A DNA stretch of 64,000 nt from an uncultured virus (IMG/VR IMGVR_UViG_3300044707_000881) (taxonomy: Duplodnaviria > Heunggongvirae > Uroviricota > Caudoviricetes). Both the position numbers and the translations under genes were made by a program. The stretch lies in IMG/VR virus record IMGVR_UViG_3300044707_000881. One strand, 5' to 3'. Numbering within the stretch: position 1 is the stretch's first letter; every line of letters starts with the position of its first letter. This document shows positions 4,508 to 29,082 of this stretch, piece by piece. Below the pieces are notes generated by a model. It searched no databases, was not told the DNA's origin, and saw only the letters and a list, made by a program, of their open reading frames with translations.

Positions 4508-5540
4508 GTAAAATTGCTCCTAAAACAAAATTAAAATGTTCTGGATCTTGCTTGTAAAAATGAGACATCAGTCCGGGATCGCGGAAACGCTCAACCCCCG
4601 TTGAAATAACCTCGGTAGGAGTGCCAGCATTTCCATATATTTTCCCTACGTAAGGGTCTATAAAATTACCTGGGAATGCCATTTCAGTATCTCTGTAATT
4701 TTCTCCAGTAATGTCTTTTAATTTCATAGGCTTGTCGGATGTAGCCCGATCTTCAATGAATTTTCTTGACGCGACGGCTAACTGGCGATTCTCAAATTCC
4801 ATATAATGCGCGTATTCGTGAAAGACCTGGAGGCGATCAATTTTCTCTTCTAATTGTAATTCTCCGTTTGGATTTGCACTGGCTCTGTCTGCTTCACTTG
4901 TTACTTTGTTTATCTTTTTCGCGCCCTTACCACCTGTTACCGCATAAACATTCACTAAAGCATCAAGAGTTATTTTCTTGTTTTCGCCTGTGAGTCCGCG
5001 AGTATCTACCGAATCAGCCCATAATTCTGCATCTTCTCTATCAATTTTATGATGGGCTGCTATTCTCCGCATCGTTTCTCTTGTGGCTGATTCAAATTCT
5101 TTTTGGGCCAGTAAGGTTTTCTCGTCCAATTCTTTTAAACGTTTTTCATCTCGTTTGTAGAAATCTCCGTTTTTTTTAAACTTGTTCTTTCCCATTATTT
5201 CTAAGAAGGCACTCTTTTTTTCGGACAGAGCATCGTCTAGCGACTTTAGTGCTTTCCCCATAGTTTGATCGGAAAACTCCTTCCCTATGCCAATCAAAGC
5301 TCTGTGATCCGCGGAGTCAGCTTTATATGATGTAGGCGTAGTTTTACCAGGTTTGTCGGTGTCTTTCTTGGTAGTTTTACCAGGTTTGTCGGTGTCTTTC
5401 TCGGTAATTTTACCAGGTTGAGCGGAATCCCCGGTTTTTTTTGATTTCAAGCAATCTTTAAGCTTGGAAATGCAGGAATTCCCGCAAGGTGTACCATTCT
5501 TGCAAATTTTTTCCTTAAAATCGTTTAGTCTTTTGCCCAT
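4497..5540 (-). CDS. Zincin-like metallopeptidase-domain protein with N-terminal Cys motif
   Basis: FHEYAH (HExxH) plus downstream EVISTGVE; N-terminal CKNGTPCGNSCISKLKDC; repeated KDTDKPGKTT linker. Confidence 0.6.
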   Translation of the reverse strand: MGKRLNDFKEKICKNGTPCGNSCISKLKDCLKSKKTGDSAQPGKITEKDTDKPGKTTKKDTDKPGKTTPTSYKADSADHRALIGIGKEFSDQTMGKALKSLDDALSEKKSAFLEIMGKNKFKKNGDFYKRDEKRLKELDEKTLLAQKEFESATRETMRRIAAHHKIDREDAELWADSVDTRGLTGENKKITLDALVNVYAVTGGKGAKKINKVTSEADRASANPNGELQLEEKIDRLQVFHEYAHYMEFENRQLAVASRKFIEDRATSDKPMKLKDITGENYRDTEMAFPGNFIDPYVGKIYGNAGTPTEVISTGVERFRDPGLMSHFYKQDPEHFNFVLGAILHEN

Positions 5541-5603
5541 ACCGATACCCAGGATTCTGTTTCAGTAAGCTTTCCCTAATTTGAAAAAATTTTCTAAAAC
5601 CTA

Positions 5604-5632
5604 TTGACAATATTTTGTTAGACTGTTACTAT
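5604..5632 (+). promoter_or_regulatory. Early promoter (variant of the repeated cassette promoter)
   Basis: TTGACA-17-TACTAT with extended -10 TG. Confidence 0.8.
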
Positions 5633-5675
5633 CATGGAGTGAGAGAAAAACAACTAGCAACTAGCAGGACAAAAA

Positions 5676-5909
5676 ATGACTTACTACATCAACATGAAAG
5701 ATTCTGGCAAAGTAGCTAAAATCATGACAGAAACAGGCAACACCTGGACAGCTAGGATCAATGGCACTTTAGAGGAAATTCTTGATTATTACATGGGGAA
5801 AAAATTTAATGTTGGGCTGAGACCATCTGACAGAATAGAAACAGTGAAATATGTGGAGGTATTTGATGCTAATGGGATATTGTTGGGCAAGGGATTAAGA
5901 AACACATAA
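5676..5909 (+). CDS. Small early hypothetical protein
   Basis: Own promoter, RBS AGGA and terminator; contains no CpG. Confidence 0.75.
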   Translation: MTYYINMKDSGKVAKIMTETGNTWTARINGTLEEILDYYMGKKFNVGLRPSDRIETVKYVEVFDANGILLGKGLRNT

Positions 5910-5913
5910 ACCA

Positions 5914-5943
5914 AAAGCACACCTCATGAGGTGTGCTTTCTTT
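5914..5943 (+). terminator. Rho-independent terminator
   Basis: AAAGCACACCTC-AT-GAGGTGTGCTTT hairpin followed by T-rich run. Confidence 0.75.
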
Positions 5944-5994
5944 ATCCCTACGAAATTTGTGAGAGTTCAACAGGAATATTAGGAGTATAGCACG

Positions 5995-6201
5995 ATGGAC
6001 GACAATTTAAAAAAAGCTCAACAGAATTACGAGAAATCCGAAAAAGGCAAGGCGCGACGCAAGCGTTACCGCCAGAAGCCTGAAGTCAGGGAACGTGAAC
6101 GGGAATTAGACCGCGAACGCAAGGAGTATAAACGGGAATATATGCGGGAATTTATGCGACAGAAACGGGCAAAGTTGAAGGAAGAAAAACAAGGTGAATG
6201 A
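5995..6201 (+). CDS. Small highly charged helical protein
   Basis: RBS AGGAG; K/R/E-rich 68 aa; CpG-rich, unlike its neighbours. Confidence 0.65.
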   Translation: MDDNLKKAQQNYEKSEKGKARRKRYRQKPEVRERERELDRERKEYKREYMREFMRQKRAKLKEEKQGE

Positions 6202-6337
6202 TGCGGTGAACCCTCTATTTTGAGGGTTTTTAATGATAAAAAAATTTCCAAAAAAACTTTCCAAAACCCCTTGACAAATATTTGTTATCCTGTTACTATA
6301 TAAGAGTGAGAGAAAAAAACAACAGGAAACAAAAACA

Positions 6338-6595
6338 ATGTTTGTTACATTTGAAACCATAGAATCTAAACAAATCACAATTGACATCACTGGAGTAAGT
6401 GGCTGGGATAATGAGCAATTAACAAGATATGCCTGTGAACAATTGAATACAGACTACACAGATTATCAAGGAAGAAGTAGAAAACTGAAAAAAGGGGCAG
6501 TAGTAACTCCAATAAACTGGAGACCTCTAAAAGTCTCTTACAGACAAGAACTTACCATAAAAAGACCACCTAGGAAGTATTCAGTAGTTTTCTAA
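6338..6595 (+). CDS. Small early hypothetical protein
   Basis: Starts at the ATG ending the promoter repeat; terminator hairpin at ~6613-6649. Confidence 0.75.
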   Translation: MFVTFETIESKQITIDITGVSGWDNEQLTRYACEQLNTDYTDYQGRSRKLKKGAVVTPINWRPLKVSYRQELTIKRPPRKYSVVF

Positions 6596-6753
6596 ACATA
6601 AAACCTAAGCATAATACCCTGGATTAGTGATAGTCCAGGGTATTTTTTTAGTCAAAAAAAATTTCCAAAAAAACTTTCCAAAACCCCTTGACAAATATTT
6701 GTTATCCTGTTACTATATAAGAGTGAGAGAAAAAACAACAGGAAACAAAAACA

Positions 6754-7050
6754 ATGATTAATGTCTACTATGCCTGCCTCCTAGATGAAGAAAACTGCCC
6801 AGAAATCACTACAGCATCAAGAAAAAGGGCTTTAGAATTAGCTCAACAAAAAACCAGCAACCCTGTATCAGTAGCAGTATTTGAAAAGGGGGAATATCTG
6901 GTATTTTATGAGAAAATTTCAGTTGATGAGACATTGCCTGAGAACAGGGGATATACTATAAAAGCCATTATCAATGACTTAACTCCTCAGTGTAGTGATG
7001 CAGAATATTCCTCTCATAGAAAAGTTAAAGTTACCTCCCAAGAGTGCTAA
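6754..7050 (+). CDS. Small early hypothetical protein
   Basis: Starts at the ATG ending the promoter repeat; hairpin at ~7077-7103. Confidence 0.75.
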   Translation: MINVYYACLLDEENCPEITTASRKRALELAQQKTSNPVSVAVFEKGEYLVFYEKISVDETLPENRGYTIKAIINDLTPQCSDAEYSSHRKVKVTSQEC

Positions 7051-7219
7051 GACTGAAATATTTGTCCTATTCTTAGTAACCCAGTGCATAAAACACTGGG
7101 TTATTTCATGTTACCTAAGTCAAAAAAAATTTCCAAAAAAACTTTCCAAAACCCCTTGACAAATATTTGTTATCCTGTTACTATATAAGAGTGAGAGAAA
7201 AAACAACAGGAAACAAAAA

Positions 7220-8218
7220 ATGAGAGTAGCAGAAATTAACACCACAGAACTAAATTTAGACCCCAAAAGATTTCAATACAAACTAGTCCACAATTCAACA
7301 GGTGCTACTGGTTCATTATCAAATATTGATTCTTGGAATGTTTACTTGTCTGGGATTGTTCTAGTATGGGGAGATCCCACAGATGGGAAAATTTATGTAG
7401 TCAATGGACATAACAGAGTTAACCTAGCTAAAAAATTGGGAACTGTTGAGAAAATTTTATGTAGGTTCATAGATGCCCAAAATCACACAGAAGCTAGGTT
7501 AACAGGTGCATTAGCTAACATTGCAGAAGGCATGGGAACTGCTGTTGATGCAGCTAAATTTTTCAGAGATTCTAGTTACAGCATTAATCAAGTAAAAAAC
7601 TTTGGTATCAATCCAAAATTAAAAATTGTGCAAGATGGGTTAAGTCTCTCAAATTTGGTTAGTTTCTTGTTTGACAAAGTTGCCATTGGTGATATTCCCA
7701 TTGATAAGGGTGTGATTTTAGGAAGTGTGGGGACTAGAGAACAGCTGGAAGTATGGGAACTAATCAAAGGTAAGCAGGTGAGCAGCAAAGCACTAGATGA
7801 GATTATTTCAAACATTCTTAACCCTGCAAGTGGGCAAACATCACTTTTTAACCTGTTCAATCAAGATAGTCAAGATGATGAATTAACCAAGCTGGAATTA
7901 GTTGCACAGGTGAGAGTCAAGCTACAAAGATCCAAAAAGTTGCTACATCTAGTTTCAAATCAAGGCAATGCTTCATTCTTGGAGTCAATTGGTAACAATC
8001 TCAATCAAGCTGGCAACTTATCAGCTAGTGAGTTAACCCATTATGTCCTGCAAATATTTGACCAACTAAAAAACCAACATTCTCCAGTGAGTGAGATTTT
8101 GAATAGTGGTGTTGATGCTAAAAAGTCTGGCAAGTCAATGACAACCATTGTTGATGACTGTGTTAGTCAGTTGATCACAGTCATCCCCAAAATGATTAAT
8201 CAAAAAGTTGCTGCATAA
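7220..8218 (+). CDS. ParB/Srx N-terminal-domain protein (early)
   Basis: DPKRFQYK...KIYVVNGHNRV ParB-like signature. Confidence 0.7.
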   Translation: MRVAEINTTELNLDPKRFQYKLVHNSTGATGSLSNIDSWNVYLSGIVLVWGDPTDGKIYVVNGHNRVNLAKKLGTVEKILCRFIDAQNHTEARLTGALANIAEGMGTAVDAAKFFRDSSYSINQVKNFGINPKLKIVQDGLSLSNLVSFLFDKVAIGDIPIDKGVILGSVGTREQLEVWELIKGKQVSSKALDEIISNILNPASGQTSLFNLFNQDSQDDELTKLELVAQVRVKLQRSKKLLHLVSNQGNASFLESIGNNLNQAGNLSASELTHYVLQIFDQLKNQHSPVSEILNSGVDAKKSGKSMTTIVDDCVSQLITVIPKMINQKVAA

Positions 8219-8234
8219 CCAAGAATTTTAACCC

Positions 8235-8267
8235 AGTTGATCACTTGTCACAGTGATCAACTTTTTT
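8235..8267 (+). terminator. Rho-independent terminator
   Basis: AGTTGATCACT-TGTCAC-AGTGATCAACT followed by T-run. Confidence 0.75.
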
Positions 8268-8283
8268 GCATTTTGAGGTAAAA

Positions 8284-8820
8284 ATGAAATACAGACAATT
8301 ATCAATTTTTGACTTGCATCCACAATCAGATCCACAGGTGAGAGCCAAGGCAACTAAAAAAACTCACACCACACCACAAGAACCTAAAAAATCAGTGATT
8401 GACAAAATCAAAGCAATTTCCATCCATGCCCCCCATGCCTATGCCATCTGCATGGGTAAAAAACCTTATGAATACAGAAACTCACCCACCAAAAAAAGAG
8501 GTTGGGTATTGATTCACAGCAGTTCTAGCAAGGCAAGTGACTCATTTTTTGAGGACTATGGGATTGACAAAAAAATAGCTGCTAGAGGGGCAATAATTGG
8601 GGCAAGTTTCATAACTGACTGTATAGGTGGTGAAAGTGCCATAACTCAACATGGGGGGTATGCCTACAGGATGACAAGATCAATGCTGTTTCCTGCCCCT
8701 ATTTTGGGTGTCAAGGGGTGTCAGGCAATCTTTTGGGGACATTGTAAAGATCCCCAAAAAATCAAGGCATTTAACCAAGCATTAGAACAGATGGGAATTG
8801 ACCTGAAAGTGAGAGGATAG
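8284..8820 (+). CDS. ASCH domain protein
   Basis: AISIHAPHAYAICMGKKPYEYR...RGWVLIHSS...GAIIG; ATG at 8284 preferred (RBS GAGG). Confidence 0.85.
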   Translation: MKYRQLSIFDLHPQSDPQVRAKATKKTHTTPQEPKKSVIDKIKAISIHAPHAYAICMGKKPYEYRNSPTKKRGWVLIHSSSSKASDSFFEDYGIDKKIAARGAIIGASFITDCIGGESAITQHGGYAYRMTRSMLFPAPILGVKGCQAIFWGHCKDPQKIKAFNQALEQMGIDLKVRG

Positions 8821-8874
8821 GCAATCTGGGGGAGAAATCCCCCTTGTTTTTGGCAACATACAACAGGCTATAAT

Positions 8875-9408
8875 ATGGGTTATTTGGATGCAACCATGAA
8901 ACCCATAGCCTACTCAATGCGCCCCGAAGAAGCCTTAAAACTGGCAATTGGGGAAATCAGAATTATTTTAACAACTCAGGCAGAATCAAAGCGGAAAATC
9001 CTGTTTCACGCTTGCAGCTACGACACAACGGAACAGGAAAACGCCGGATTTAAAGCGATCGCACAGTTAGGGTTTTCGCCTGAAGAAGTGCCAACTAATT
9101 CAATTATTGGCTGGGCGAAAATTGCAGACGTGAAAACCTACGACGCGGCAAAATTTGCAATTGACGGGAAACTTCACGGACACGGATTTGATTTAAACCA
9201 GTTTCTTGCTGCTGAAGGTTGGCAAGGTCAACAAGTTTACGGATTAGTTTTAGAGGAACAACATTATTTAAACCTGCCAATTATGGGCGTGGGTTCAGAA
9301 TATGTACACGGCGACTTCTGGGAAGCACAAAGCCCGTTTCAAGTGGTGGCATTTGAACGGGCTTTAGATGCTGGGAGTGTTGATATTGCGGCTGCTGTGG
9401 GGTATTAA
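8875..9408 (+). CDS. Divergent ASCH-like protein
   Basis: AYSMRPEEA...ILFHA...NSIIGWAKIADV; lacks the GxKxxExR motif. Confidence 0.6.
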   Translation: MGYLDATMKPIAYSMRPEEALKLAIGEIRIILTTQAESKRKILFHACSYDTTEQENAGFKAIAQLGFSPEEVPTNSIIGWAKIADVKTYDAAKFAIDGKLHGHGFDLNQFLAAEGWQGQQVYGLVLEEQHYLNLPIMGVGSEYVHGDFWEAQSPFQVVAFERALDAGSVDIAAAVGY

Positions 9409-10063: not shown

Positions 10064-10393
10064 ATGACGGTATTAGTAAAAACCCGCGCGATTCACTACG
10101 AGTTACTGACTGATGAGAGCGAGATTATTGGCGGCGTGTTTGCTGTTAATCACCGCCAATATATCGAGATAGTTGATTTATTTGTAAACAGAGAATTTCA
10201 AAATCAGGGACACGGGCGATCGCTCATGCAGATAATTTTCGACAATCACCCAAACAAAATACTCTGTTTACAATGCGGGGCTTTTAGCAATGGGTTAAGT
10301 CAGGGCAATTTAGCGGAATGGTATAAGCGGCTGGGATTTGTGGAGGGTACGCCATTTCATCAAGGGGATGGATGGATGCACAAACCTATTTAG
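10064..10393 (+). CDS. GNAT N-acetyltransferase
   Basis: LFVNREFQNQGHGRSLM (motif A) and WYKRLGF. Confidence 0.88.
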   Translation: MTVLVKTRAIHYELLTDESEIIGGVFAVNHRQYIEIVDLFVNREFQNQGHGRSLMQIIFDNHPNKILCLQCGAFSNGLSQGNLAEWYKRLGFVEGTPFHQGDGWMHKPI

Positions 10394-11276
10394 CCGTCAT
10401 CCTTGCTGTGATTTCCGGGAACAGATCACACAATTCTTTTAACTGAACCGGAGCATAACGCGCCATCCATTTATAGTAGGTACTACATAGAGTTTCCGGT
10501 GTGCAGTACCACAGAGTCCGAGGAAATGGCTTACCTTTTTTCTGCGGTATTTGGTGCATTGAGTAGATAGGACTAACAGGCGATTCATTCTCAACAAGTA
10601 ACGCCCAAACATCCATATCCAGCCAATCACCCAACGGTAAGGCGCGAACCCACGGCAGTAAATCTTTTTTATCCTGATCATGAAATTGCAGCATTCCAGC
10701 ACGGGCAATTTCAAACTGTCTATCCATACCCTCAGCACCACGCGCACCCCACATATACATTACGTTGGGGGTTCCGTCACCATACAAATGATGAAATTGG
10801 TAGATACTTTCATAACTAATTGACGTGCCAACATCGCCCCAATCCCAAAAGTTTAACCGTTGTCCACCTTCACCCTTCAGACCGTAGGAATTACCCCAAT
10901 CAATATACTTTTTAACTATTAGTGGAAACGGGTCATCAGTTAGATATTCTTCATAATAAAACCCGTTACCAAATGAGTTTATATAATCCTCCCACTCTGG
11001 CAAAACGTCATAATGTTGTGGGAGTTCCGCCCCACAGTCAATAATTAAATTACAATAATCAACCTCTGCCAATTCTAAAATTATCGCAGTTGCCATTGAA
11101 TCTTTACCATACCCAAACCATAGACCCGGTATGACATCCTGATTAACTTTAGGGTTGTCATACCAAGACTGCACACGCTCAATGGTTTTGTTTTTGAGTG
11201 CCTGAAATTCATCAGTTTTCGCCCGTTTCGCTGCTTCCAGATATTTCTTCTGTGGCAGTGCTTTCGATATTTCCAT
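10386..11276 (-). CDS. PAPS-reductase/PP-loop family protein
   Basis: FGYGKDS PP-loop, WGARGAEGMDR, PLGDWLDMDVW. Confidence 0.8.
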   Translation of the reverse strand: MEISKALPQKKYLEAAKRAKTDEFQALKNKTIERVQSWYDNPKVNQDVIPGLWFGYGKDSMATAIILELAEVDYCNLIIDCGAELPQHYDVLPEWEDYINSFGNGFYYEEYLTDDPFPLIVKKYIDWGNSYGLKGEGGQRLNFWDWGDVGTSISYESIYQFHHLYGDGTPNVMYMWGARGAEGMDRQFEIARAGMLQFHDQDKKDLLPWVRALPLGDWLDMDVWALLVENESPVSPIYSMHQIPQKKGKPFPRTLWYCTPETLCSTYYKWMARYAPVQLKELCDLFPEITARMTAK

Positions 11277-11922
11277 CTCCCCAAATATCCCCTTCTAAAA
11301 TATTTTCAGGCACATCATAATTTCCCCAATTCAACACATCTTCTTCCGTGTGCTGGTTTTCTTCTTGGGTTTCTTTGCTGTCATCTTCTTCTTGGTTGTC
11401 GTCGCTTTCTTCTTGTGCATCATGGATCAATTTCTCCAATTCTTCTAAGGGTAAATCGGCATCTAGTTTTAATTGTTGAATACAAGCTAACGCCAATTCT
11501 CGCGCCATTCTGTCTTGTGAGTTTTTAAGAACAGCAACAATAAACGCCTTGCAAATATCCAACTGACGGCGGACATCACCCATTTTTGATAGGCGAACCG
11601 CGCCATCTGCTAAAGCTAAAGTTCCCTGAAATGCTGCTAACATTCCGGTTAGATCAAGCCCCAAAAGCCGCAGTTTTAACTCTTCGACAAACTCAAAAGT
11701 TAGCTCCCCTTGTTCAACTAAAATTTCACACGCTTGGAGTAAAGTTTTACCCTCTTTGGAGAATTTACCAGCGCCTTCAATTTGGCTAAGAATCCGACCA
11801 TGAGCAACATAGAAACTTTCACGGACAATAGTTTCAAAGTCATGATCCTCCGCATCCGTGAAAGCGTCGCGCCATTTCCCAGACAACCTTTTCCCGTAGA
11901 GTCCGTCATTCTTCTTTGGCAT
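11212..11922 (-). CDS. Hypothetical protein (terminase small subunit candidate)
   Basis: Helical protein with acidic tail in a late operon; function is inference only. Confidence 0.45.
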   Translation of the reverse strand: MPKKNDGLYGKRLSGKWRDAFTDAEDHDFETIVRESFYVAHGRILSQIEGAGKFSKEGKTLLQACEILVEQGELTFEFVEELKLRLLGLDLTGMLAAFQGTLALADGAVRLSKMGDVRRQLDICKAFIVAVLKNSQDRMARELALACIQQLKLDADLPLEELEKLIHDAQEESDDNQEEDDSKETQEENQHTEEDVLNWGNYDVPENILEGDIWGDGNIESTATEEISGSSETGEN

Positions 11923-12208
11923 TACGAATTAACCAAACTACTTGGGTGATCACCTTGTTTACTTCTTGCATTGCTTTAGAACGGCGGCCATGCCTGATAT
12001 TGTTCTTTCCACATTTAGATTTATCGCGTGGTCCGGTGGACTTCTCCCAAGGTTTATTTGCCAAGCATCGCCGCCGACAATCTTCAATGTATTCAGGTGA
12101 TAGATTTCGCTTGTACTTTTTTGGCGGGTATTTTTTAGCCTTGAACAGTTCCATAAACTTGTCAGAATCCAATGTTTTCGGCTGTGATTGGTTCGGCTGC
12201 GCTGTCAT
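11906..12208 (-). CDS. Small basic protein with STGPR...N..HG motif
   Basis: KSTGPRDKSKCGKNNIRHGRRS resembles HGGxSTG-like motifs. Confidence 0.5.
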   Translation of the reverse strand: MTAQPNQSQPKTLDSDKFMELFKAKKYPPKKYKRNLSPEYIEDCRRRCLANKPWEKSTGPRDKSKCGKNNIRHGRRSKAMQEVNKVITQVVWLIRNAKEE

Positions 12209-13139
12209 TTACTGCCACTCCTAATTCAGTAATCATCATGTCTACTATCTTTAGAATTACCTGACTCCGGTATTGTTGAACCATACCATCAGTTGAGATG
12301 CCAACTTGGGGCGCGAGTTGGTCAAGTTTGGATCTAAATGGTGCTAAGTCGGATTTATCGAGAAAGATATAAAACTGTGTTTGTTCGCCCTTTCCGGTGT
12401 AGTTGATACTTTGGACGCTGGCAACATCCGCCACGTTTTCAGTCTCAACTGTGACTTTTTCCGCAGGTGGTGGAGGCGTGTAATCACTTCTACTGGGTGT
12501 TACGTCAATCGTGGTGTTATTGGAATTTTGATCAGAATATTTATCATCATCAAAATCGTAGTTGCCCGTTTCTTCCTGTTCCTCTAACTCTTCGGGTTCT
12601 TCCGTCTTCCGTACCAGAAACGCTTGCATAAACGAGTTAGCAGTGCCAGAATCCCAACCCGCACTTTTTAGCTGCTTCTTAGGCATTTGTGCAAGGATAG
12701 CGGCTATTTTGCCGGGGTCATCACGTCCATCATGGGATGTGTTGTTAAGTCGAAGCAAAGCCGATTTTTGGCTAAGTTCATCGAGTGTTACGGGGACAAT
12801 TGGAATAGTTGCCCAATATTCAGCGCAAAACCGCTCTTGGTGCTTGTGAGAAACTTTGTCCCTCCCTGTACCTTTGATCCACCGCTCCCACTCTTTCAAG
12901 AAAAAGTCTTCATCCTGTTGACTTAGCCAGTCCGCACCCTGAACCCGTCCATGTCCAGAGATGAGATAGCCAAAACTACCGTCTAAATTCCGTTGAATTG
13001 TAGGGTAAATTAACCACCCGAAGTCTAGGAGTGAGTCACGAATCCAAGGCAAATCATTCTCTTCTGAATGTTCGCGGGGATTCTCAGGGTGAAACTTTGC
13101 CAACACGCCGGATGTTGGAAGGCGTAAAACTTCACTCAT
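12162..13139 (-). CDS. ParB-like protein (modification-associated type)
   Basis: HPENPREH...SLLDFGW...LISGHGRVQGA. Confidence 0.8.
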   Translation of the reverse strand: MSEVLRLPTSGVLAKFHPENPREHSEENDLPWIRDSLLDFGWLIYPTIQRNLDGSFGYLISGHGRVQGADWLSQQDEDFFLKEWERWIKGTGRDKVSHKHQERFCAEYWATIPIVPVTLDELSQKSALLRLNNTSHDGRDDPGKIAAILAQMPKKQLKSAGWDSGTANSFMQAFLVRKTEEPEELEEQEETGNYDFDDDKYSDQNSNNTTIDVTPSRSDYTPPPPAEKVTVETENVADVASVQSINYTGKGEQTQFYIFLDKSDLAPFRSKLDQLAPQVGISTDGMVQQYRSQVILKIVDMMITELGVAVNDSAAEPITAENIGF

Positions 13140-14254
13140 TTTTTAACAACCTCTACCGCTTTTTGTGAGTGAATCATTGCTTCATGCAGCGATTTTAACG
13201 CCGCTTCAACATGAGTAGAATCACCACAGGTTTTCATCACCCAGTCAGCAAGCCCGGTAAACTTGCTGGTAACTTGCCATTGTTGTTGTACTATCGTCAT
13301 TCGTTTTCTCGATAGATTTATTGAATCATTGATAACATAATTCTTAGCCCACAGGGAAGCGGTGCTGTGGTCAATTCCTAAATAGGTTTCGCACCAGTAG
13401 GAACTTTTGCCGTTAGCGATCGCATCAATTGCCCTAATCTTCAATTCCTTAGAATAGCCACGCCTCCCAATTGGCGCGGGGTTGTCCCTGAATTGAGTCT
13501 GGCAGGACTTGCACAAATAGCCCTGTTTACCGTCACGTTTACCATTTTTAATAGTTTGATAATCTTTGCAATTTGGACATTGAACCCGCCCAAGTGCCAT
13601 CAACTTTAGTTTTCGTAAAGCGTCAGACTCAATGCGGCGTAACTCCCTCAATTTAATATTGTGAATTTGGCACAGCATTTTGACGGGAATATGGTCAATG
13701 TATAAATCTCGGATAATTGTGGCGTGAAGTTCTGGCAGTTTGTCAAGTAGGGGGAGAATTGAATCTAATTCCTCTTGTTGTTCTGCCGTCAGTTGTTTAG
13801 GCAACTCAGGATTATTCTGATTGCAAGCCATCGCCGCCTCTTTGGCGACTTGCAAGGATATCTCAAGTTCTAAAGCAGCCTGTTCATAAGTTACGCCGTG
13901 CTTTTGGGCGTATCGCTTTAGTTTTTGGTGAGTTTCTTGTAACTGACGCGGGACTTTTACTATCCGCGCTTTATCCCTGACAAATTGCGCCATTGCACCA
14001 TAGATAAAGGGAACAGCGTAACTGGACAGCTTGATTTTCTTGGCAGGGTCAAACCTCTCCACCGCTTTGATCAACCCCTCCGCACCAATTTGTATCAGAT
14101 CTTCTCTTGGGACTGTGCAGCAAGCGGTCATTTTCCCTGCGACATGACCGACCAGTCCCATATTCATCTCAACTATTTTATTTCTCAGTCGGATGTCCCT
14201 GGTTTGGTGAAAATTAATTAAAAGTTGCTGGTTGTCTAAGTATGCCGCGTCCAT
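13136..14254 (-). CDS. SigF/SigJ-like sigma factor fused to IS1 InsA-like Zn-ribbon/HTH
   Basis: EDLIQIG..GLIKAVERFDP..LSSYAVPFI region 2; C-terminal CPNC..IKNGKRDGKQGYLCKSC plus HTH. Confidence 0.85.
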   Translation of the reverse strand: MDAAYLDNQQLLINFHQTRDIRLRNKIVEMNMGLVGHVAGKMTACCTVPREDLIQIGAEGLIKAVERFDPAKKIKLSSYAVPFIYGAMAQFVRDKARIVKVPRQLQETHQKLKRYAQKHGVTYEQAALELEISLQVAKEAAMACNQNNPELPKQLTAEQQEELDSILPLLDKLPELHATIIRDLYIDHIPVKMLCQIHNIKLRELRRIESDALRKLKLMALGRVQCPNCKDYQTIKNGKRDGKQGYLCKSCQTQFRDNPAPIGRRGYSKELKIRAIDAIANGKSSYWCETYLGIDHSTASLWAKNYVINDSINLSRKRMTIVQQQWQVTSKFTGLADWVMKTCGDSTHVEAALKSLHEAMIHSQKAVEVVKK

Positions 14255-17755: not shown

Positions 17756-18274
17756 ATGAACAATAATAATTATGGAATGTCTCAAACACGAGACAAATGT
17801 TATGGCGTAGCCGCTTGTCTTACCTATTGGGCTTTCAAGTGCCGTGACAGAAAACGTAGTCCAGCGATGGGTACTAAAACCTGGACTTACTTGGAATCAA
17901 GTATTAGAAACTCTGCTGAAATATCAACTAATTTAGAAGATTATTTGCAGCGACTTTGTGATAAACTTTGTTCACAATTACGCCCAATCGAGTTAACAAA
18001 AATAATTCAGCCAACACAACGGATACTAAGAGTAAATGAAGATGCGACGGAAATCAAGGAACTTCCCGTTGACCAAAATCTTGTATTTATGGGATGGTTG
18101 GATTTAATTGCTGACATTCAACCACACGGATTTACCGAGTGGGATGTACTTGAACTACTGAGAACCAAAGCAGGGATTATTCAAGTAATTTGTAGATTAC
18201 GGTTTGAGGAAGACCGCAGTTTAGGGTTAGATGAACCAGAAGAGTTTATAGAAGTTGAGGTGACAAATGTTTGA
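17756..18274 (+). CDS. Type IV-B small subunit (Cas11-like)
   Basis: Helical 172 aa, first gene of the csf operon, overlaps csf2. Confidence 0.55.
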   Translation: MNNNNYGMSQTRDKCYGVAACLTYWAFKCRDRKRSPAMGTKTWTYLESSIRNSAEISTNLEDYLQRLCDKLCSQLRPIELTKIIQPTQRILRVNEDATEIKELPVDQNLVFMGWLDLIADIQPHGFTEWDVLELLRTKAGIIQVICRLRFEEDRSLGLDEPEEFIEVEVTNV

Positions 18275-19397
18275 TAATTACGATGTTTTTGACCGTGAAA
18301 GATTGACATTGCATTGTGTAATTACGACACAAACGCCACTTTCACATATTGGGGAAGTGTCGGGAAATGTGAGCAATTTAAAAACATTAAAATTACTGGA
18401 TTTTGAAGGTAATCCCAGAAGTGTTTTCACCTATTCTGGAAATGCCTTGAGAAATGGTTTGTTACGGCGTGTAGGTGTAGCTGCGGCGTTAACTGAATTA
18501 GGATTACAGGTAAATCCTGATACACACCATACAATGTTTGCAGGTGGCAGGATTGATGCCGGTACAGCTTCAGATATGGAACTTGATAAAAAGATCCGGG
18601 TTCTAATGCCTTGGTTGTCGGTCTTAGGAACTGCTAAACCTGCTAAAGTGTTTGGTTCTAAAGATGCCCAAATGGTGCAAGGTAGGATTAATGTAGGTTC
18701 TGCTTACTTGGCTTGTTATGAGTCAGCAGAGTACATCTACAATCAGATACCAGCAATATTACCACCGGAAATACAACCCGCTATTCAGAAGCTAATTGAG
18801 GCTAAAAATAAATTATCTTCAGACCCATTCACTCCCACAAAAACTGAAGATTTGGATAATTGGAATCAAGCAAAAAATGACTACTTGCCTTTGATTAGAA
18901 AAGTAATGAAAACATGGTCTGAATATTTAACGGTTGATCAAACTACCCGCAGAGATGCAACTTTAGATCCTAATTTGATTAAATTTCTGCCAACAGAAGT
19001 ACAGGCGCAACTCAAGGGAGATGGTGCAGCTAAAGAGAAAAAATCGGATCAAATGATTGCTTCCGATAGATTAATTATGCCAGGAGCAAAACTATACTCA
19101 AGATGGGATTTGAACTGTACGCAAGTTGAGCAGGGATGGATTTTTGATACTTTATTGAAGTTTGCACAATTCCCGTATTTAGGTGGTAAAGGCAATCGCG
19201 GAAATGGTCGAGTCAGCATGAATTTCTGGTTTAGTTCTGAGTCAGAACGTGGTTTATTGTGGAGTTCTGAAAGTGGTGTAGAGAGCGATAGATTTAACCT
19301 GGCACACGCTAAATATAGAGAATATATCAATCAATATCAACAGTTTTTGAGTGAGGCGAAAACATCAACTGAGTTAAGGAGTTTGTTGGGTGGATAA
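18267..19397 (+). CDS. csf2: Type IV Cas7 RAMP (Csf2)
   Basis: TPLSH...YSGNALRNGLLRR...MFAGG and Gly-rich loop YLGGKGNRGNGRV. Confidence 0.85.
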   Translation: MFDNYDVFDRERLTLHCVITTQTPLSHIGEVSGNVSNLKTLKLLDFEGNPRSVFTYSGNALRNGLLRRVGVAAALTELGLQVNPDTHHTMFAGGRIDAGTASDMELDKKIRVLMPWLSVLGTAKPAKVFGSKDAQMVQGRINVGSAYLACYESAEYIYNQIPAILPPEIQPAIQKLIEAKNKLSSDPFTPTKTEDLDNWNQAKNDYLPLIRKVMKTWSEYLTVDQTTRRDATLDPNLIKFLPTEVQAQLKGDGAAKEKKSDQMIASDRLIMPGAKLYSRWDLNCTQVEQGWIFDTLLKFAQFPYLGGKGNRGNGRVSMNFWFSSESERGLLWSSESGVESDRFNLAHAKYREYINQYQQFLSEAKTSTELRSLLGG

Positions 19398-20079
19398 CTT
19401 AAAAATTACAGCACATTTGGCGACATCTTTGGGTGCTTATGACAACTGGAGTCCATCGCTAGAAGGGATTTTAGTTTATAGGCTTTTAGAACAAAATAAT
19501 CTACTTTCACCTAATCCCACGCCAGATCAAGTAGCAGAAACCAAAGAGTTTATTGAGCAGAATTTACCACTAAAACAAGGTGTCATTAAGTCAGAGAAAT
19601 ATTGGTGCGTGAGTTCACCTTGCTATGTTTTGCAGGGTGAAGCTACAGACAAATATAGAAAACGATGGGATAATCACGAAAACAATTTAGACTGGGGTAA
19701 GCGTAAGCCCAAATTTTTAACAGGTGAAGGGGCGGAAAAATCCTATGATTTACCGCTTTACACAAGGTTAATTAATTCTATTTCTTGGTTTGCTGTAGGC
19801 GATAAAACGGCAATCAAAAATCTTTTGTCGTCTGTTACTCACATTCAGAAAAAGCGTAGTTACGGCAATGGTGAAGTCAGGGAATGGGAAATAGGGGTGA
19901 TTTACGATAATTACCATCTGTGGCGTGATAGTAAATTAATGCGTCCTATCCCTGTTAGATTACTTGATCAAAAAATAGATAATCCTCAGATGGTTTGGGG
20001 GTGGAGAAGTCCCGCTTGGTTAGCGGCAAACAAGGAGTTGTGCTATATGCCAAAGGATAACGTGATTTATGCTAAGTAA
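19390..20079 (+). CDS. csf3: Type IV Cas5 RAMP (Csf3)
   Basis: LKITAHL N-terminus; WFAVGD...THIQKKRSYGNGEVREWEI; MRPIP. Confidence 0.8.
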   Translation: MDNLKITAHLATSLGAYDNWSPSLEGILVYRLLEQNNLLSPNPTPDQVAETKEFIEQNLPLKQGVIKSEKYWCVSSPCYVLQGEATDKYRKRWDNHENNLDWGKRKPKFLTGEGAEKSYDLPLYTRLINSISWFAVGDKTAIKNLLSSVTHIQKKRSYGNGEVREWEIGVIYDNYHLWRDSKLMRPIPVRLLDQKIDNPQMVWGWRSPAWLAANKELCYMPKDNVIYAK

Positions 20080-20815
20080 CGGATCTGGCGTTCAATATCC
20101 CTGGTTAAAAAAGAAAATAACCAGGGCAAAAGACTTAATTAAAACATGGTTAGAGCAATGCGATTATCAGGTTTACGCTAGTGTGTCAGGTGGTAAAGAT
20201 AGCCTAGTGATGTCACATTTGATTAGGCAAGTTTACTCAGATTGTCCATTGGTCTGGGTAAATCAGGGAATGTTTGCTGAATGGGATGATTGCATTGAAT
20301 TATTAGAGTTTTTGAAAACTCAGGGGTGGAATATTATTGAACTTTGTCCAGTGCGTGATTTATGGCATTTGTATCTGGATTATGGCGTTCCCCTTGAAGG
20401 GACGATGGACACAAAAGCCGATAAATTGATAAATCAAAAACTGATTTATGACCCGCTTAATGAATACCAAGAATTGAATAATGTTAAGGGTTATGCGTGG
20501 GGAATACGTAAGCAAGAAAGCAAAAACCGCGCATTTTATCTCAACAAATATGGTGAAGTGCATACGCTCAAAAACGGGTTGATTTGTTGCTCACCCGTGG
20601 CATTTTGGACTACTCAAAATATCTGGGAATATATTGATATGCACTCGTTAAAATACCCTGCTATTTATGATGTTGATAGAATGACAGTTAGGAATGGATG
20701 CCCAATCGGTACAACAGGTGCTAACTGGGGAAGATTAGCAGAGTTAAGAAAGCATTACCCAGATATTTATAATCAATTTGCTACTAAATTTCCACAGGTA
20801 TCAACCTATGTCTAA
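20069..20815 (+). CDS. CysH-like PAPS reductase (type IV-B associated)
   Basis: SVSGGKDS, WGIRKQESKNR, PVAFWTTQNIWEYI. Confidence 0.88.
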   Translation: MLSNGSGVQYPWLKKKITRAKDLIKTWLEQCDYQVYASVSGGKDSLVMSHLIRQVYSDCPLVWVNQGMFAEWDDCIELLEFLKTQGWNIIELCPVRDLWHLYLDYGVPLEGTMDTKADKLINQKLIYDPLNEYQELNNVKGYAWGIRKQESKNRAFYLNKYGEVHTLKNGLICCSPVAFWTTQNIWEYIDMHSLKYPAIYDVDRMTVRNGCPIGTTGANWGRLAELRKHYPDIYNQFATKFPQVSTYV

Positions 20816-21560
20816 TTGCTACCTTTGCGCTAAACCCGGATCTAATGCTTTGGAATTATCCAATACATTCACGATGCACTCGTCAGCTAAATGTCCAGAG
20901 TCTAAAGTGCTATGCGATCGCTGTCACTCTACAATTTCCGGTAATCAAAAGCAGCTTTGGTACTGGAATGAAGGTAAAAATAAATGGTCAAAGCTGTGGG
21001 GACGTTCTTTGTCCAGGGTTTATCAGGGTGATAAGCTAATTGCGCCTGTCGTTGAAGGTGAATATACAGAAGGCAAGGATACTTTTTCAATAGTTAAAAA
21101 CTTGCTGACTAGGGTGGGAATTAGGCAATACTTGTTAAATCCACCTGAACCGCCTTTTACTATAGCCATAGCAGAATCGGGGCAAAAACATATTATCCCT
21201 TGGGCGTTAGAAGGTCAAAACAGAGATTTATTCCCTGTGCAATTTGAACTCGACACTATTTATATTGACAATAGATTTAGAGAATATTTGGAAATTTACG
21301 AACAATTGATGGGATTAGGTTTTAGTAAGTCTGAAATTGATTCTGGAGATTATCGAAGCGATCGCCTAATGAAAGTTTTTGATCAATATGGGGAACTTGA
21401 GGAACGGATAGCGCGTATTAGGGGAACGAGATTAATGCAATTAATTAGCTATGTTGCCCAAGTGCAAGACGCGCCGCCAATTACGGAAGTAGTGCAAATT
21501 CCCGTAATGCCTGTTTCACCAAAAACACTTGAGAAGCCACTGCAATTATCTTTGTTTTAG
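20808..21560 (+). CDS. csf1: Type IV large subunit (Csf1, Cas8-like Zn-finger protein)
   Basis: CYLC...TFT...C...CDRC; LLNPPEPPF...SGQKH; C-terminus QLSLF. Confidence 0.8.
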   Translation: MSNCYLCAKPGSNALELSNTFTMHSSAKCPESKVLCDRCHSTISGNQKQLWYWNEGKNKWSKLWGRSLSRVYQGDKLIAPVVEGEYTEGKDTFSIVKNLLTRVGIRQYLLNPPEPPFTIAIAESGQKHIIPWALEGQNRDLFPVQFELDTIYIDNRFREYLEIYEQLMGLGFSKSEIDSGDYRSDRLMKVFDQYGELEERIARIRGTRLMQLISYVAQVQDAPPITEVVQIPVMPVSPKTLEKPLQLSLF

Positions 21561-25780: not shown

Positions 25781-26002
25781 AGTTCACTAAGTGGTTAAGT
25801 AAAGTGGACTAACCATTGAAACCACCGGAATACCGCAAATATTCCTGCGTGGTATGGTTTAAATAATTATATCATGTTTTCAATAGTCTTATTAATTTTT
25901 CAATAACTTAGGATACAATATTATCCAGTCGCGTGATGGTGTTGGTAGCACCGATTCACCACTGGCTGTAGGTCTTGTACACCCACATTGATATTATTCC
26001 CA

Positions 26003-27871
26003 ATGAAAACTATTAAAATCAAGGTCAAACTTCTTGCTGAACAGGCGCAATCATGCGATCGCTACCTAGAAGAATTGACATGGCTATGGAATCAGGTATT
26101 GGCTAATCAATTGCATAACCATTGCATCACCTGGTACAACTGGGCTGGTAAGTTGAGCGCAGATTTAGCTAAGGCGACGGAAAAGTTAGAGAAGCTAAAA
26201 CCGGAACAACAGCAGCTTGTTAGGAACTACTACCGCAGCAAAGACAAGCCAAAACTCAACAAAAAAGAACAGGAATTAGTTGCCAAATTTGATATATTTT
26301 CCCGGTGGTTGCCGTTTGACTTAGAAAATATTATTCCCGTACCTTTGCGAGTTGGCAACAGTGGCTACGAGGGCTTATCGTGCCAGATTGCTACAGGCGG
26401 AAGTTACTGGAAACGGGACGATAATTTTAATATTCCCATTAAAACCAAAAAGGGGATTATTCACGTCAAAGGGTCTAAATTAGTTAAGGGTGATTACCCC
26501 TGGAAACGGATAGAGATAATCCCCCACAAATACAAAACTTTCCCCAGTGGTAAGTTTGAGGGGAGGGAATTAATAGATTTAATGAAGTTTGATAATTTGA
26601 ACGGGTTAAACGGGTTAAGAGCGATGCAAAACCTACCAGACTTAACCGTTTCATCTCACTACGTCGGAGGCTTGTTAGGGTTTTTCAAACAGTCATGGTT
26701 AGCATTTTTAGACCCCAAAAGGATAAACAGCAGGAAGCCAAAATTCAAAAAAGATGCTGATAAGATTAGCACTTTATTTAATAAGCAATGTCCACCAAAT
26801 AAGATAGACATAAAGAATAATTCAGTTGAAATTACTGGATTTGGCAATTTAATCGTTACTGATAGAAGTTGGGGGGAAAGACTGAACCTAGATAGCAGTC
26901 TTCCTCGGGCGTATATGCTAACCAAAAAAGCATCTGGCTACTATATCAATATTGTCCTTGCTCACCCATTGCAAGAAGAAAAAGCGGTTTTAACAAAGAA
27001 ATTACCCAAGGTTAAAAAGGAGCTTGGAGAAGACAGCCAAGAGTACGAAAATATTAAGTCTAAAATCAAGTTTATTGAACAGCAAATCAAGGATTCGTTA
27101 ATCGTAGTGGGAAAGAATTTAAGCGTAGGGATTGACCCTGGAGTACAGGCTATTGTGGCGACAGATCACGGGGCGTTATTCCTCCCAAATCTAAGCAGGG
27201 AAAGAGTGTCAATCCATATAGAGGAACTACAATCAAGGCTTGATAACCTTGAATTAATTAATGATAAAAAGTGGAAAGATTCAGGAAGCAAAGGTGCTAG
27301 ACCTAAGACAAAAAACGAGATTAAGATACAAGATAAAATTACCAGATTACATGAACGTGGGGCTAATTCTTCTAATGCCTTTAATCATAAAATGTCAACT
27401 AGATTAAGCAGGACTTACGAGCATATAGCATGGGAGGATACCCAGTTAACCAATCTCCTAAAACAAACAGAAGCTAAAGCATTGCCTGAAGGGGTGGGAT
27501 ATGCTCACAACGGCGCGTCTGCTAAACGGGGTTTAAATTGGATTATGAGACAAAGATGCTTGGGTGATTTAAAAGCTAAAACTAAGCAAAAAGTTGAGAA
27601 CAGAGGCGGTAGTTTTCATGAACCACCTGCTAACTACAGTTCTCAACTATGCCATTGTTGTCATCAGAAAGGTGAGCGATTATCACAGTATGAGTTTGTC
27701 TGCAAAAACTCTGAATGTGAGTTATTTGAACAGGTGCAACAAGCTGACACCAATGCGGCTAGGAATCACAAACATAATAGTAGTTTTGAACTAGGAGAAG
27801 TCAAATATCACAACACTAGATTGGTTTACCAAAAACCCAAGAGATTTAAAAAGAAACGCTTGACAAAGTAG
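26003..27871 (+). CDS. TnpB-derived compact type V (Cas12-like) RNA-guided nuclease
   Basis: MKTIKIK..L TnpB-like N-terminus; RuvC-I VGIDPG, RuvC-II IAWED, Zn finger CHCC..C...C, RuvC-III ADTNAARN; adjacent array. Confidence 0.88.
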   Translation: MKTIKIKVKLLAEQAQSCDRYLEELTWLWNQVLANQLHNHCITWYNWAGKLSADLAKATEKLEKLKPEQQQLVRNYYRSKDKPKLNKKEQELVAKFDIFSRWLPFDLENIIPVPLRVGNSGYEGLSCQIATGGSYWKRDDNFNIPIKTKKGIIHVKGSKLVKGDYPWKRIEIIPHKYKTFPSGKFEGRELIDLMKFDNLNGLNGLRAMQNLPDLTVSSHYVGGLLGFFKQSWLAFLDPKRINSRKPKFKKDADKISTLFNKQCPPNKIDIKNNSVEITGFGNLIVTDRSWGERLNLDSSLPRAYMLTKKASGYYINIVLAHPLQEEKAVLTKKLPKVKKELGEDSQEYENIKSKIKFIEQQIKDSLIVVGKNLSVGIDPGVQAIVATDHGALFLPNLSRERVSIHIEELQSRLDNLELINDKKWKDSGSKGARPKTKNEIKIQDKITRLHERGANSSNAFNHKMSTRLSRTYEHIAWEDTQLTNLLKQTEAKALPEGVGYAHNGASAKRGLNWIMRQRCLGDLKAKTKQKVENRGGSFHEPPANYSSQLCHCCHQKGERLSQYEFVCKNSECELFEQVQQADTNAARNHKHNSSFELGEVKYHNTRLVYQKPKRFKKKRLTK

Positions 27872-27888
27872 ATGGTTTTAGTTATTAT
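27860..27888 (+). promoter_or_regulatory. Promoter for tracrRNA-like RNA
   Basis: TTGACA-17-TATTAT overlapping the effector stop codon. Confidence 0.7.
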
Positions 27889-27894
27889 CAATTT

Positions 27895-28040
27895 ACCGCA
27901 GTTTGGACGGGATGACTGGTTCTGTCAGTCTATGACTTGATGATTTTACGATCAAAAAGTAAGGGAGATGGTGACTACTCCCATAGACCAGCCGGAACTA
28001 TGGCTGGCAATCCTCAGAAGGGATTAATCATTTTGCAATC
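27895..28040 (+). ncRNA. tracrRNA-like RNA
   Basis: Three hairpins followed by an anti-repeat at 28008-28038 complementary to the CRISPR repeat. Confidence 0.75.
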
Positions 28041-28165
28041 ATCGAAGCGGCGTGGCTAAAACAAACCCGCGCGCAAATCCAGAACCTAGACAAGCGAAGG
28101 GATTAGAGCTATCTTTGCAGAATATCAAAAGGGATTTAAGCGGCTGCAATGGACTTTTTGGATTC

Positions 28166-29082
28166 CTTGCAGGATGACTAATCCCTTCTGAGGGATTGAA
28201 ACAATGATACTGGTAACACGTTCTCTTGGTTGTTTACCTTGCAGGATGACTAATCCCTTCTGAGGGATTGAAACCAGCCTGGAGAGGGAATTTCAGCAAG
28301 AATTAGAACTTGCAGGATGACTAATCCCTTCTGAGGGATTGAAACTCCTTGCCAGAAATTAAGGAACAGTGCGAGATGATGACTAGCTTGCAGGATGACT
28401 AATCCCTTCTGAGGGATTGAAACTATCAGAATATTGATTAATAGATGTAGTGTAATGTGCTTGCAGGATGACTAATCCCTTCTGAGGGATTGAAACGACA
28501 GTATCCTTCATTGTGCTATTGGAAATAATGAGCTTGCAGGATGACTAATCCCTTCTGAGGGATTGAAACTAACCATTTGTTCTAGCAGTTGGTTTTCTGC
28601 TATGTTCTTGCAGGATGACTAATCCCTTCTGAGGGATTGAAACAACTTCCAAGAGGGCGCGGAGGTCAAGTCCAAACTTGCACTTGCAGGATGACTAATC
28701 CCTTCTGAGGGATTGAAACCACCAAAGGCAAGAATTAGCACAAGAATTTGTACCTTGCAGGATGACTAATCCCTTCTGAGGGATTGAAACTGTTTCCCGT
28801 CTCCCAGTTTGGCGAGTGCATCGGAATTGCTTGCAGGATGACTAATCCCTTCTGAGGGATTGAAACAGATCCTTTTGTGGGATTGATAGCAGCCCGTTGT
28901 ACTTGCAGGATGACTAATCCCTTCTGAGGGATTGAAACTTGACTTAATTCTATTCCCCCAAAAGATGACATTACTTGCAGGATGACTAATCCCTTCTGAG
29001 GGATTGAAACGCGCTAATTCTTTCACTGCAAATACTCCTATTGATCTTGCAGGATGACTAATCCCTTCTGAGGGATTGAAAC
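28166..29082 (+). CRISPR. CRISPR array: 13 identical 37-bp repeats, 12 spacers of 34-41 bp
   Basis: Repeat CTTGCAGGATGACTAATCCCTTCTGAGGGATTGAAAC at 28166, 28238, 28309, 28387, 28460, 28533, 28607, 28683, 28754, 28830, 28902, 28974, 29046. Confidence 0.99.

Follow-up and report, generated by a model that had tools for sequence, protein, structure and literature searches.

Introduction

The early region of phage T7 and the pre-early region of T5 are leading regions from which a motif has been cleared, and messenger RNAs (mRNAs) that lack the word ACA are immune to the MazF endoribonuclease and can be translated while other RNA is destroyed. Here we analyse the distribution of the CG dinucleotide in a 64,000 base stretch of DNA from an uncultured virus of the class Caudoviricetes (IMG/VR record IMGVR_UViG_3300044707_000881; hereafter the window), in which a 2.7 kb block of strongly promoted and probably early genes contains no CG at all. 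Among the described systems closest to this locus are the PeSL cassettes of T4-type phages, in which a strong sigma-70-like promoter, repeated in many copies, and paired stem-loop terminators bracket small genes that are not essential; these lie in a variable region where relatives differ by swaps at the cassette copies (promoter-early stem-loop elements; Arbiol et al. 2010, PMC2839356). In Murciavirus phages, as outlined in a study of Type I restriction-modification (PMC12455610), anti-defence-type early genes lie in a stretch cleared of a motif that is common elsewhere. The CpG suppression that ZAP drives in vertebrate RNA viruses likewise removes CG from transcribed sequence (outlined in PMC10191365).

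A 2.7 kb block without CG

The window has a GC content of 41.2% and contains 2270 CG dinucleotides, an observed/expected ratio (obs/exp) of 0.83. An initial annotation of this DNA had reported the absence of CG from 6206 to 8919, where some 80 sites were roughly expected, and a computed scan bore this out: the longest stretch without CG extends from 6204 to 8920 (2716 bases), and the segment 6206–8919 (GC 36.6%) contains no CG where its base composition predicts 90.8. Two thousand mononucleotide shuffles of the block gave a mean of 90.8 CG and a minimum of 64. A search for similar gaps elsewhere in the window returned runners-up of just 475 bases (42710–43185) and 408 bases (5543–5951), the second of which includes the shorter stretch 5545–5950 already recognised as CG-free in the initial annotation. 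The 211 bases between the two neighbouring CG-free stretches (5995–6205) carry 18 CG (obs/exp 1.73), in agreement with the CG-rich intervening gene noted there at 5995–6201, and the flanks of the block have an obs/exp near 0.96. Just six of 88 greedy open reading frame (ORF) calls are devoid of CG, all of them inside 5676–8820; one of the six is a 54-codon frame (6995–7159) that was not treated as a gene.

The avoidance is specific to CG, as had been proposed from the presence of GATC and GC. The dinucleotide GC is found at a normal frequency in 6206–8919 (82 vs 90.8 expected), GATC occurs 10 times in the early segments, and CG alone was strikingly absent in a survey of words of three to five bases in these segments. 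Other words that were unexpectedly, if weakly, absent were GGCC, GTAC, two five-base words containing GTAC, and CTACC. GTAC was considered as a second banned word and rejected: it is missing from the early segments of the window, yet occurs 8 times against 16.1 expected across relatives, a weak effect.

The purge targets the dinucleotide itself, not codons or proteins. Holding the six early proteins fixed and drawing codons from the usage of 27 other window genes (2000 draws), we obtained a mean of 96.7 CG and a minimum of 72, made up on average of 21.3 in CGN codons, 28.3 in NCG codons and 47.2 at codon junctions, against none in any class in the real genes. It is this absence of CG from all three codon phases, compared with about 97 from codon resampling, that places the ban at the dinucleotide level. 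The arginine codons of the six genes are AGR in 36 of 36 cases (29 AGA and 7 AGG) and never CGN, in keeping with the AGR codons that the initial annotation had noted for the genes of 6206–8919.

Cassette structure and the boundaries of the ban

The block is an array of self-contained cassettes, each with one copy of a recurrent sigma-70-type promoter, followed by a small gene and its terminator, and the earlier description of four genes with their terminators and three promoter copies holds. A 42-base promoter pattern is present without mismatch at 5604, 6271, 6688 and 7156, with 0 copies expected in 100 shuffles. It comprises TTGACA, a 17-base spacer and TACTAT preceded by TG (a strong host-type promoter with an extended −10), followed by a conserved A-rich leader; each copy scores 10/12 and has the TG before the −10. 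Between 5400 and 9500 there are 13 terminator-like sites, compared with 3.5 in shuffles, sited 3′ of the cassette genes, and terminators are similarly placed after the cassette genes of the relatives L003 and L014. The genes of the block and of the shorter stretch before it encode proteins of 77, 85, 98, 332 and 178 amino acids (aa), the last two under one shared promoter. The cassette genes are probably expressed early, to judge by the type of promoter, by gene content and by the presence of a sigma factor encoded by the phage itself.

The ends of the CG-free stretches follow the predicted ends of these units closely. CG resumes 5 bases past the tail of the first terminator in the window (5951) and 67 bases past that of the last (8920), and in L003 it resumes 2, 14 and 14 bases past the terminator tails at 3/3 unit ends. 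Genes that lack the early promoter and are wedged between units, behind terminators, are CG-rich: these are a 68-aa arginine-rich gene in the window and a 52-aa ORF in L003, the latter with 8 CG. Taking the predicted promoters and terminators as limits, the ban is bounded by transcription units.

The ban is not tied to genome position, because a sixth CG-free unit lies 35 kb away from the block and because the blocks have different neighbours in relatives. The sixth unit (42710–43185, minus strand) has a variant promoter (43102–43074) and a 91-aa gene (43004–42730) and is located amid tail genes; the 91-aa protein had no match in Pfam or PHROGs. The early blocks are flanked by different genes in different relatives, and L003 and other contigs carry different genes under the same promoter (an HPD-motif gene, 104-aa and 32-aa genes) next to different neighbours. 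The HPD-motif gene lies in a CG-free cassette of L003 (5219–5707) and encodes a 162-aa protein whose N-terminal HPD motif, identified by eye, suggests a J domain.

In the window the cassettes are encoded on the plus strand. Promoter copy 1 (5604–5632) has a conserved A-rich leader containing GAGTGAGAG and precedes the 77-aa gene (5676–5909; 0 CG vs 7.5 expected) and a hairpin with a T tail (5913–5946), a symmetric structure that the terminator scan calls on the minus strand and after which the first CG is at 5951. The 68-aa Arg/Lys/Glu-rich gene (5995–6201), with its 18 CG, stands outside the CG-free units and is conserved in L003, where its counterpart is found at 4901–5095 (64–68 aa across both copies). 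By eye, 12/13 of its arginine codons are CGN, and it sits between cassettes, behind a terminator and with a terminator of its own. Promoter copy 2 (6271–6299) is followed by the 85-aa gene (6338–6595; 0 CG vs 7.8 expected) and a terminator with a 14-pair stem and T tail (6613–6651), and promoter copy 3 (6688–6716) by the 98-aa gene (6754–7050; 0 CG vs 10.4 expected). No family was matched by the 77-, 85- or 98-aa proteins in Pfam, PHROGs or NCBIfam. Promoter copy 4 (7156–7184) precedes the 332-aa gene (7220–8218; 0 CG vs 33.5 expected), whose product is predicted to have a ParB/Noc/KorB-like fold, and the 178-aa gene (8284–8820; 0 CG vs 23 expected), whose product has a predicted ASCH fold and a GxKxxExR octapeptide. 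The hairpin with T tail between these two genes (8235–8268) is probably read through, and a terminator at 8828–8853 closes the block, the next CG being at 8920. Immediately beyond, and outside the CG-free zone, lies a weak paralogue of the ASCH-fold gene (8875–9408, plus strand; phrog_3193, E 0.0011) with normal CG content (26 vs 26.5 expected) and, by eye, a TATAAT upstream.

Selection against CG across relatives

The promoter pattern was found in 23 stretches on 12 IMG/VR contigs, and the first CG lies 152 to 2650 bases downstream of its 22 de-duplicated copies. Taking window and relatives together, 20 non-identical units from promoter to stop, representing about 13 protein families, contain 7 CG in 9675 bases where about 300 are expected. 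A check of the same block in related phages, as the initial annotation had suggested, showed that the shortage of CG is kept throughout the clade. This absence has persisted through considerable sequence change; 15.4% of the possible transitions in the block would create a CG. When the differences observed between gene pairs were placed at random, the 129 differences between the ParB-like genes of the window and of L042 were expected to yield 18.7 CG, and 0 and 0 were found; for the 212 differences to L043 the expectation was 30.6, with 0 and 3 found. The ASCH-fold genes gave the same picture against L029 (104 differences, 15.8 CG expected, 0 and 0 found) and L003 (82 differences, 12.0 expected, 0 and 1 found). 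The compared relatives are 13–25% diverged from the window genes, with 12–31 CG expected per gene and 0–3 seen. The comparisons of units and gene pairs indicate that continuing selection has purged CG from the units and keeps it out. Among the population variants listed for the block from four contig-level sequencing runs, 24 run-level entries at 22 distinct positions, none creates a CG.

It appears very improbable that the absence has no function and arose from biased mutation, whether by deamination or by hypermutation in heavily transcribed DNA, or from tuning towards rapid expression. TG (obs/exp 1.38) and CA (obs/exp 1.30) are raised in 6206–8919, as decay of CG would give, but at three conserved arginine positions four distant homologues carry CGC or CGT where the clade carries AGA, and this change needs transversions, so that deamination cannot account for it. 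A count of 0 against about 97 is also far beyond known decay equilibria, and the boundaries are sharp, with CG-rich genes between the units. Expression tuning is ruled out by the normal CG content of highly expressed genes of the cyanobacterial host (considered below), 8/8 psbA/D-type and phycobiliprotein genes having an obs/exp of 0.82–1.20.

Restriction of the ban to one clade

We compared 80 viral loci that encode a homologue of the 332-aa protein. Seven of the 80, at 80–100% identity, have CG-free gaps of 528–2717 bases and are the sole loci with a gap of at least 400 bases; the remaining 73 (32–43% identity) have a median largest gap of 118, and the 34 of these that were tabulated show a gene-level obs/exp of 0.51–1.54. 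The ASCH-fold genes divide in the same manner. In contigs of the clade they contain 0–1 CG against about 16–23 expected, even at 58–62% identity, whereas homologues at 54–58% identity on other Nostocales contigs outside the clade contain 13–19. On one contig from the assembly of an Anabaena isolate (C29), a copy with 74% identity is CG-free and lies in a 671-base gap; in 280 kb of sequence sampled from the genome of this isolate (CG obs/exp 0.71) no gap exceeds 399 bases. Other gaps on this contig were considered as CG-free units and rejected as simply AT-rich.

A ban that belongs to the gene families can be dismissed, distant homologues of both the 332-aa and the ASCH-fold proteins having normal CG, as can one general to Nostocales phages. 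No comparable CG-free region is present in Anabaena phage A-4L, Nostoc phage A1, Aphanizomenon phage CL131 or coliphage T5, the largest gaps of the first three being 194, 222 and 279 bases, respectively, and the ASCH gene of CL131 has 13 CG against 15.6 expected. A blastn search of the block against a phage collection returned just 57-base matches, located in the 332-aa gene and inside its weak Prochlorococcus phage homologue. On the evidence of these sequences the ban is a derived trait confined to one clade, which suits a defence specific to a host strain or a cause inside the phage.

Two conserved early proteins

The 332-aa protein has no Pfam match, but its structural model (mean pLDDT 80.7) retrieved ParB, Noc and KorB with Foldseek at E-values of 2e-5 to 1e-4, with TM-scores of 0.58–0.62 normalised to target for 7nfu, 8qa9 and 6t1f. 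Structure atlas look-alikes of the protein carry ParB_N or HTH_ParB (score 0.95). Among 29 alignment members of the family, Pfam ParB_N (PF02195) was matched by none and HTH_ParB by one, at E 0.007. The residues N62, G63, H64, N65 and R66 are invariant and resemble the GxxR box of ParB. The model predicts a ParB N-terminal domain with a helix-turn-helix fold. In T7-like Prochlorococcus phages the homologue is a domain of a giant protein encoded after the tail-tube genes, which from its position is taken to be an internal virion protein that is ejected.

This fold raises the prospect that a takeover factor of the phage, such as a ParB/KorB-like clamp, loads at CG-containing sites to silence host or other DNA and that the early units have been kept clear of such sites. 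The conservation of the 332-aa protein in all clade relatives, the delivery of its homologue as a domain of a virion protein in T7-like cyanophages, and a trait specific to the clade, which suits a cause inside the phage, would all agree with such a clamp. However, the 73 distant homologue loci show no avoidance of CG, later phage genes with normal CG would be silenced too, and ParB-family proteins read long specific sites and not a dinucleotide. We consider a clamp improbable.

The 178-aa protein (model mean pLDDT 81.7) has as its best Foldseek match the ASCH domain of TRIP4 (E 4.5e-7, TM-score 0.70 normalised to target), followed by ZmASCH, TTHA0113 and EOLA1, and its alignment profile also matches the TRIP4 ASCH domain at E 7e-4. 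In 40 sequences of the family the octapeptide GxKxxExR is conserved, with K60, E63 and R65 invariant and G58 nearly so; the same octapeptide is given as the ASCH motif in the outline of a recent preprint (bioRxiv 10.64898/2026.02.27.708502). The protein itself had no Pfam match at E up to 10, and a distant homologue in L031 scored 18 bits against PF04266, below the gathering cut-off of 21.2. The structural model predicts a beta-barrel of the ASCH/PUA-like type. The gene is CG-free or nearly so (0–1 CG) in clade relatives down to 58% identity. The ASCH family is described as including a single-strand RNase (PMC5615036, in outline) and tRNA ac4C deacetylases (bioRxiv 10.64898/2026.02.27.708502, in outline). 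The ASCH-fold protein is a candidate for the CG-reading agent considered below, to be taken as a lead and not as a finding. In Nostocales genome contigs outside the clade (L030–L033), much longer proteins (484 aa in L031) begin with the ASCH-fold domain. By eye these proteins have a Cys/His motif like a SWIM zinc finger; the CG content of their genes is normal, and AAA_24 and PNK3P-phosphatase genes adjoin them.

The phage, its probable host and other genes in the window

The whole window is phage DNA: family scans identified phage genes across it, including those for a large terminase, an ERF recombinase, a sigma-70-family factor and an NlpC/P60 peptidase, and it also encodes a tape-measure protein with a lysozyme domain and lambda-type tail L, M and J-like proteins. 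The phage is siphovirus-like, because family scans found no sheath protein among the window proteins. The genome is probably larger than 70 kb, because the nearest viral record (G001, 43,994 bases, classed as linear) is rated 60% complete. No tRNA genes were found in the window.

The host is most likely a planktonic Anabaena or Dolichospermum. We base this on 29 copies in the window of the cyanobacterial HIP1 octamer (GCGATCGC), on the source names of close homologues of two block proteins (Dolichospermum, Anabaena, Fischerella and other Nostocales), and on the occurrence of the block in lake and freshwater metagenomes from 13 studies. The hexamer CGATCG is present 32 times against 13.7 expected, and none of the 21 sequencing runs listed with the block was an RNA run.

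The phage carries two CRISPR-related loci. A type IV-B-like effector set at 17756–21560 has matches to Cas11 (E 1.7e-6), Csf2/Cas7 (2e-36), Csf3/Cas5 (1.8e-41) and Csf1/Cas8 (8e-23), and a CysH/PAPS-reductase-like gene (Pfam, 5.5e-16) lies within the cluster. At 25988–29082 a 627-aa Cas12f/Cas12u2/TnpB-like protein (PADLOC, 2.3e-56) adjoins a CRISPR array whose 13 repeats, all identical, are 37 bases long and whose 12 spacers measure 34–41 bases; none of the spacers matched any of the sequences compared. A type V-U2 locus is known from Aphanizomenon phage CL131, a different phage. On the minus strand, 10386–14254 encodes the sigma-70-family factor (13136–14254), a further ParB-like protein (12162–13139, phrog_620) and a weak PAPS-reductase-like protein (10386–11276); the ParB-like and PAPS-reductase-like pair beside the sigma factor presumably resembles IbrA/IbrB. 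On the same strand a ribbon-helix-helix-like ORF (42485–42737, by eye) with normal CG overlaps the stop of the CG-free 91-aa gene.

What could keep CG out of the early units

Our favoured reading, which we hold tentatively and with rather less than even confidence, is that the units taken to be transcribed first have to evade some CG-dependent activity directed at transcripts or at DNA that is being transcribed. The cassettes would work in the first minutes of infection while this activity is present. It would act most probably on RNA, or on DNA while it is being transcribed, because the boundaries of the ban coincide with the boundaries of transcripts; set against all the explanations together, an agent that acts on RNA itself is a possibility on which we would not rely. 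In the favoured form a nuclease active at the onset of infection would cleave RNA that contains CG. This might be an abortive-infection or CRISPR-accessory ribonuclease of the host, or alternatively a shutoff enzyme that the phage itself directs against its host, in which case the conserved, probably early ASCH-fold protein would be a candidate. The first messages, written without CG, would alone stay functional, and expression of the later genes, whose CG content is normal, would follow after the early products had neutralised or outlasted the activity. A CG-reading nuclease or sensor in the conflict between phage and cyanobacterium, whether a prokaryotic analogue of ZAP or a CG-specific enzyme carried by the phage to shut off its host, is conceivable although doubtful.

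Several considerations weigh against this reading. Units of promoter, gene and terminator might also be morons that are expressed during lysogeny. Whether RNA or DNA is the target cannot be read from the sequence, since CG is the same word on both strands and the spacers outside the transcripts are too AT-rich to be informative on CG. The ASCH lead does not favour RNA over DNA either, because the TRIP4 ASCH structure that is the best match was solved with double-stranded DNA. We know of no CG-specific ribonuclease or RNA sensor in bacteria, and an extra step is needed for the survival of the later phage mRNAs that contain CG. The ribbon-helix-helix-like ORF, which has CGs and is possibly co-transcribed with the 43-kb unit, may be an exception to the unit rule.

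Restriction offers a different route to the same pattern, in which a region first exposed on entry avoids sites so as to survive host enzymes until anti-restriction proteins are made; in a variant, site-free cassettes work after the genome has been cut and suppress immunity for phages that arrive later. The rest of the phage does show heavy avoidance of palindromes, both without CG (GGCC 14 vs 122 expected, GAATTC 3 vs 21, CTGCAG 0 vs 9.8, GGWCC 4 copies) and with CG (TCCGGA 0 vs 14.3, TTCGAA 0 vs 7.2, GGCGCC 0 vs 7.4, GRCGYC 0 and CYCGRG 1), the second group being avoided as strongly as the first, and GGTACC, CCATGG, ATGCAT and GACGTC have 0 copies in the window. No DNA methyltransferase family was matched among the 85 ORFs scanned, and the early segments of the window hold 0/10 of the avoided non-CG sites. 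In the outline of the Murciavirus study (PMC12455610), motifs in the first-injected region alone decide sensitivity. Removing every CG would delete all CG-containing sites at once, and self-contained cassettes would survive cuts made between them. Yet CG alone is banned from the early units, where GATC, CTAG, AGCT, CATG and TGCA are near expectation; GGCC, which the genome avoids more than any other site, is depleted less in the early units of relatives (8 copies, 19.5 expected) than in other sequence (14 copies, 122 expected). No known set of enzymes spans all 16 NCGN contexts, and four-base CG palindromes are present at 73–134 copies elsewhere in the window. A CpG-directed defence at entry had been one of two causes put forward in the initial annotation, and its positional version fits poorly because there are CG-rich genes between the cassettes inside the array and a sixth CG-free unit 35 kb off, and because the blocks are placed beside different neighbours in relatives and three other Nostocales phages, as well as T5, are without the feature. 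We regard restriction avoidance as unlikely overall.

The other cause put forward was that these genes must be readable when virion DNA is modified at CG. The premises of that proposal stood, in that CG is absent specifically and under selection, and in that the genes concerned are strongly promoted and probably early, but modified virion DNA itself has been weakened as the cause. If CG in virion DNA were modified and unreadable by host RNA polymerase, genes read from the injected DNA would need to lack CG, which would explain an effect that follows units at any location and has the boundaries of transcription units. ParB-like/PAPS-reductase-like pairs have been proposed as DNA-modification systems, and a ParB-like and a weak PAPS-reductase-like gene stand beside the sigma factor. 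Against this, seven CG-containing six-base palindromes have about 4 copies in the rest of the genome where about 62 are expected, which implies that those CGs are exposed to restriction; blanket protection of CG would make their avoidance needless. The sigma factor (48 CGs), ERF and other pre-replication genes have normal CG, scans of the window proteins found no DNA base-modification enzyme family any more than a methyltransferase, and the stronger PAPS-reductase-like gene belongs to the type IV-B cas cluster. CG-modified virion DNA is for these reasons highly improbable.

Comparison with known systems

Removal of CG from about 3.6 kb, kept through 25% divergence and in some 13 gene families, means that each CG is costly in exactly these units, and to our knowledge no bacterial or phage mechanism reads CG alone. 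In the literature titles and abstract openings searched we found no published description of a CG-free phage region, and the paper on Aphanizomenon phage CL131 makes no mention of CpG. The locus is best seen as a case of sequence-avoidance camouflage, and its cause could mark a new CG-reading mechanism, although we would not press this second point.

Of the features of PeSL cassettes, the repeated promoter, the paired stem-loop terminators and the shuffling of genes between relatives at the cassettes are present here. This phage is of another type, with another host, no relationship in sequence is expected, and the abstract on PeSL cassettes (PMC2839356) describes no ban on a dinucleotide. The motif-free leading regions differ in another respect: here a whole dinucleotide is cleared, by transcription unit, and not one enzyme's site at a genome end. 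What is missing is every CG in all contexts, which is not the site of a defined restriction system. A T5-like pre-early signature is ruled out: within positions 1–30000 of T5 (L036), the first-step-transfer terminal repeat is enriched in CG, with an obs/exp of 1.06–1.49 per 2 kb against 0.57–0.92 in the next 20 kb. If restriction at entry is nevertheless the cause, motif avoidance in leading regions would extend from single sites to a whole dinucleotide, and analyses of motif avoidance would need to be done per transcription unit.

We know of no bacterial counterpart of ZAP. As with ZAP, a CG-reading host factor is one of the agents proposed here, but the suppression outlined for vertebrate RNA viruses (PMC10191365) is eukaryotic, partial and genome-wide, whereas the ban described here is total and limited to cassettes taken to be early. 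Should the agent indeed prove to be a nuclease or sensor that depends on CG, it would add a new type of defence or takeover function and might serve as a tool. A parallel in action would be MazF: in both cases the spared transcripts lack the short word of a nuclease, a three-base word read by a known toxin in the one, and the dinucleotide CG, read by a putative agent, in the other.

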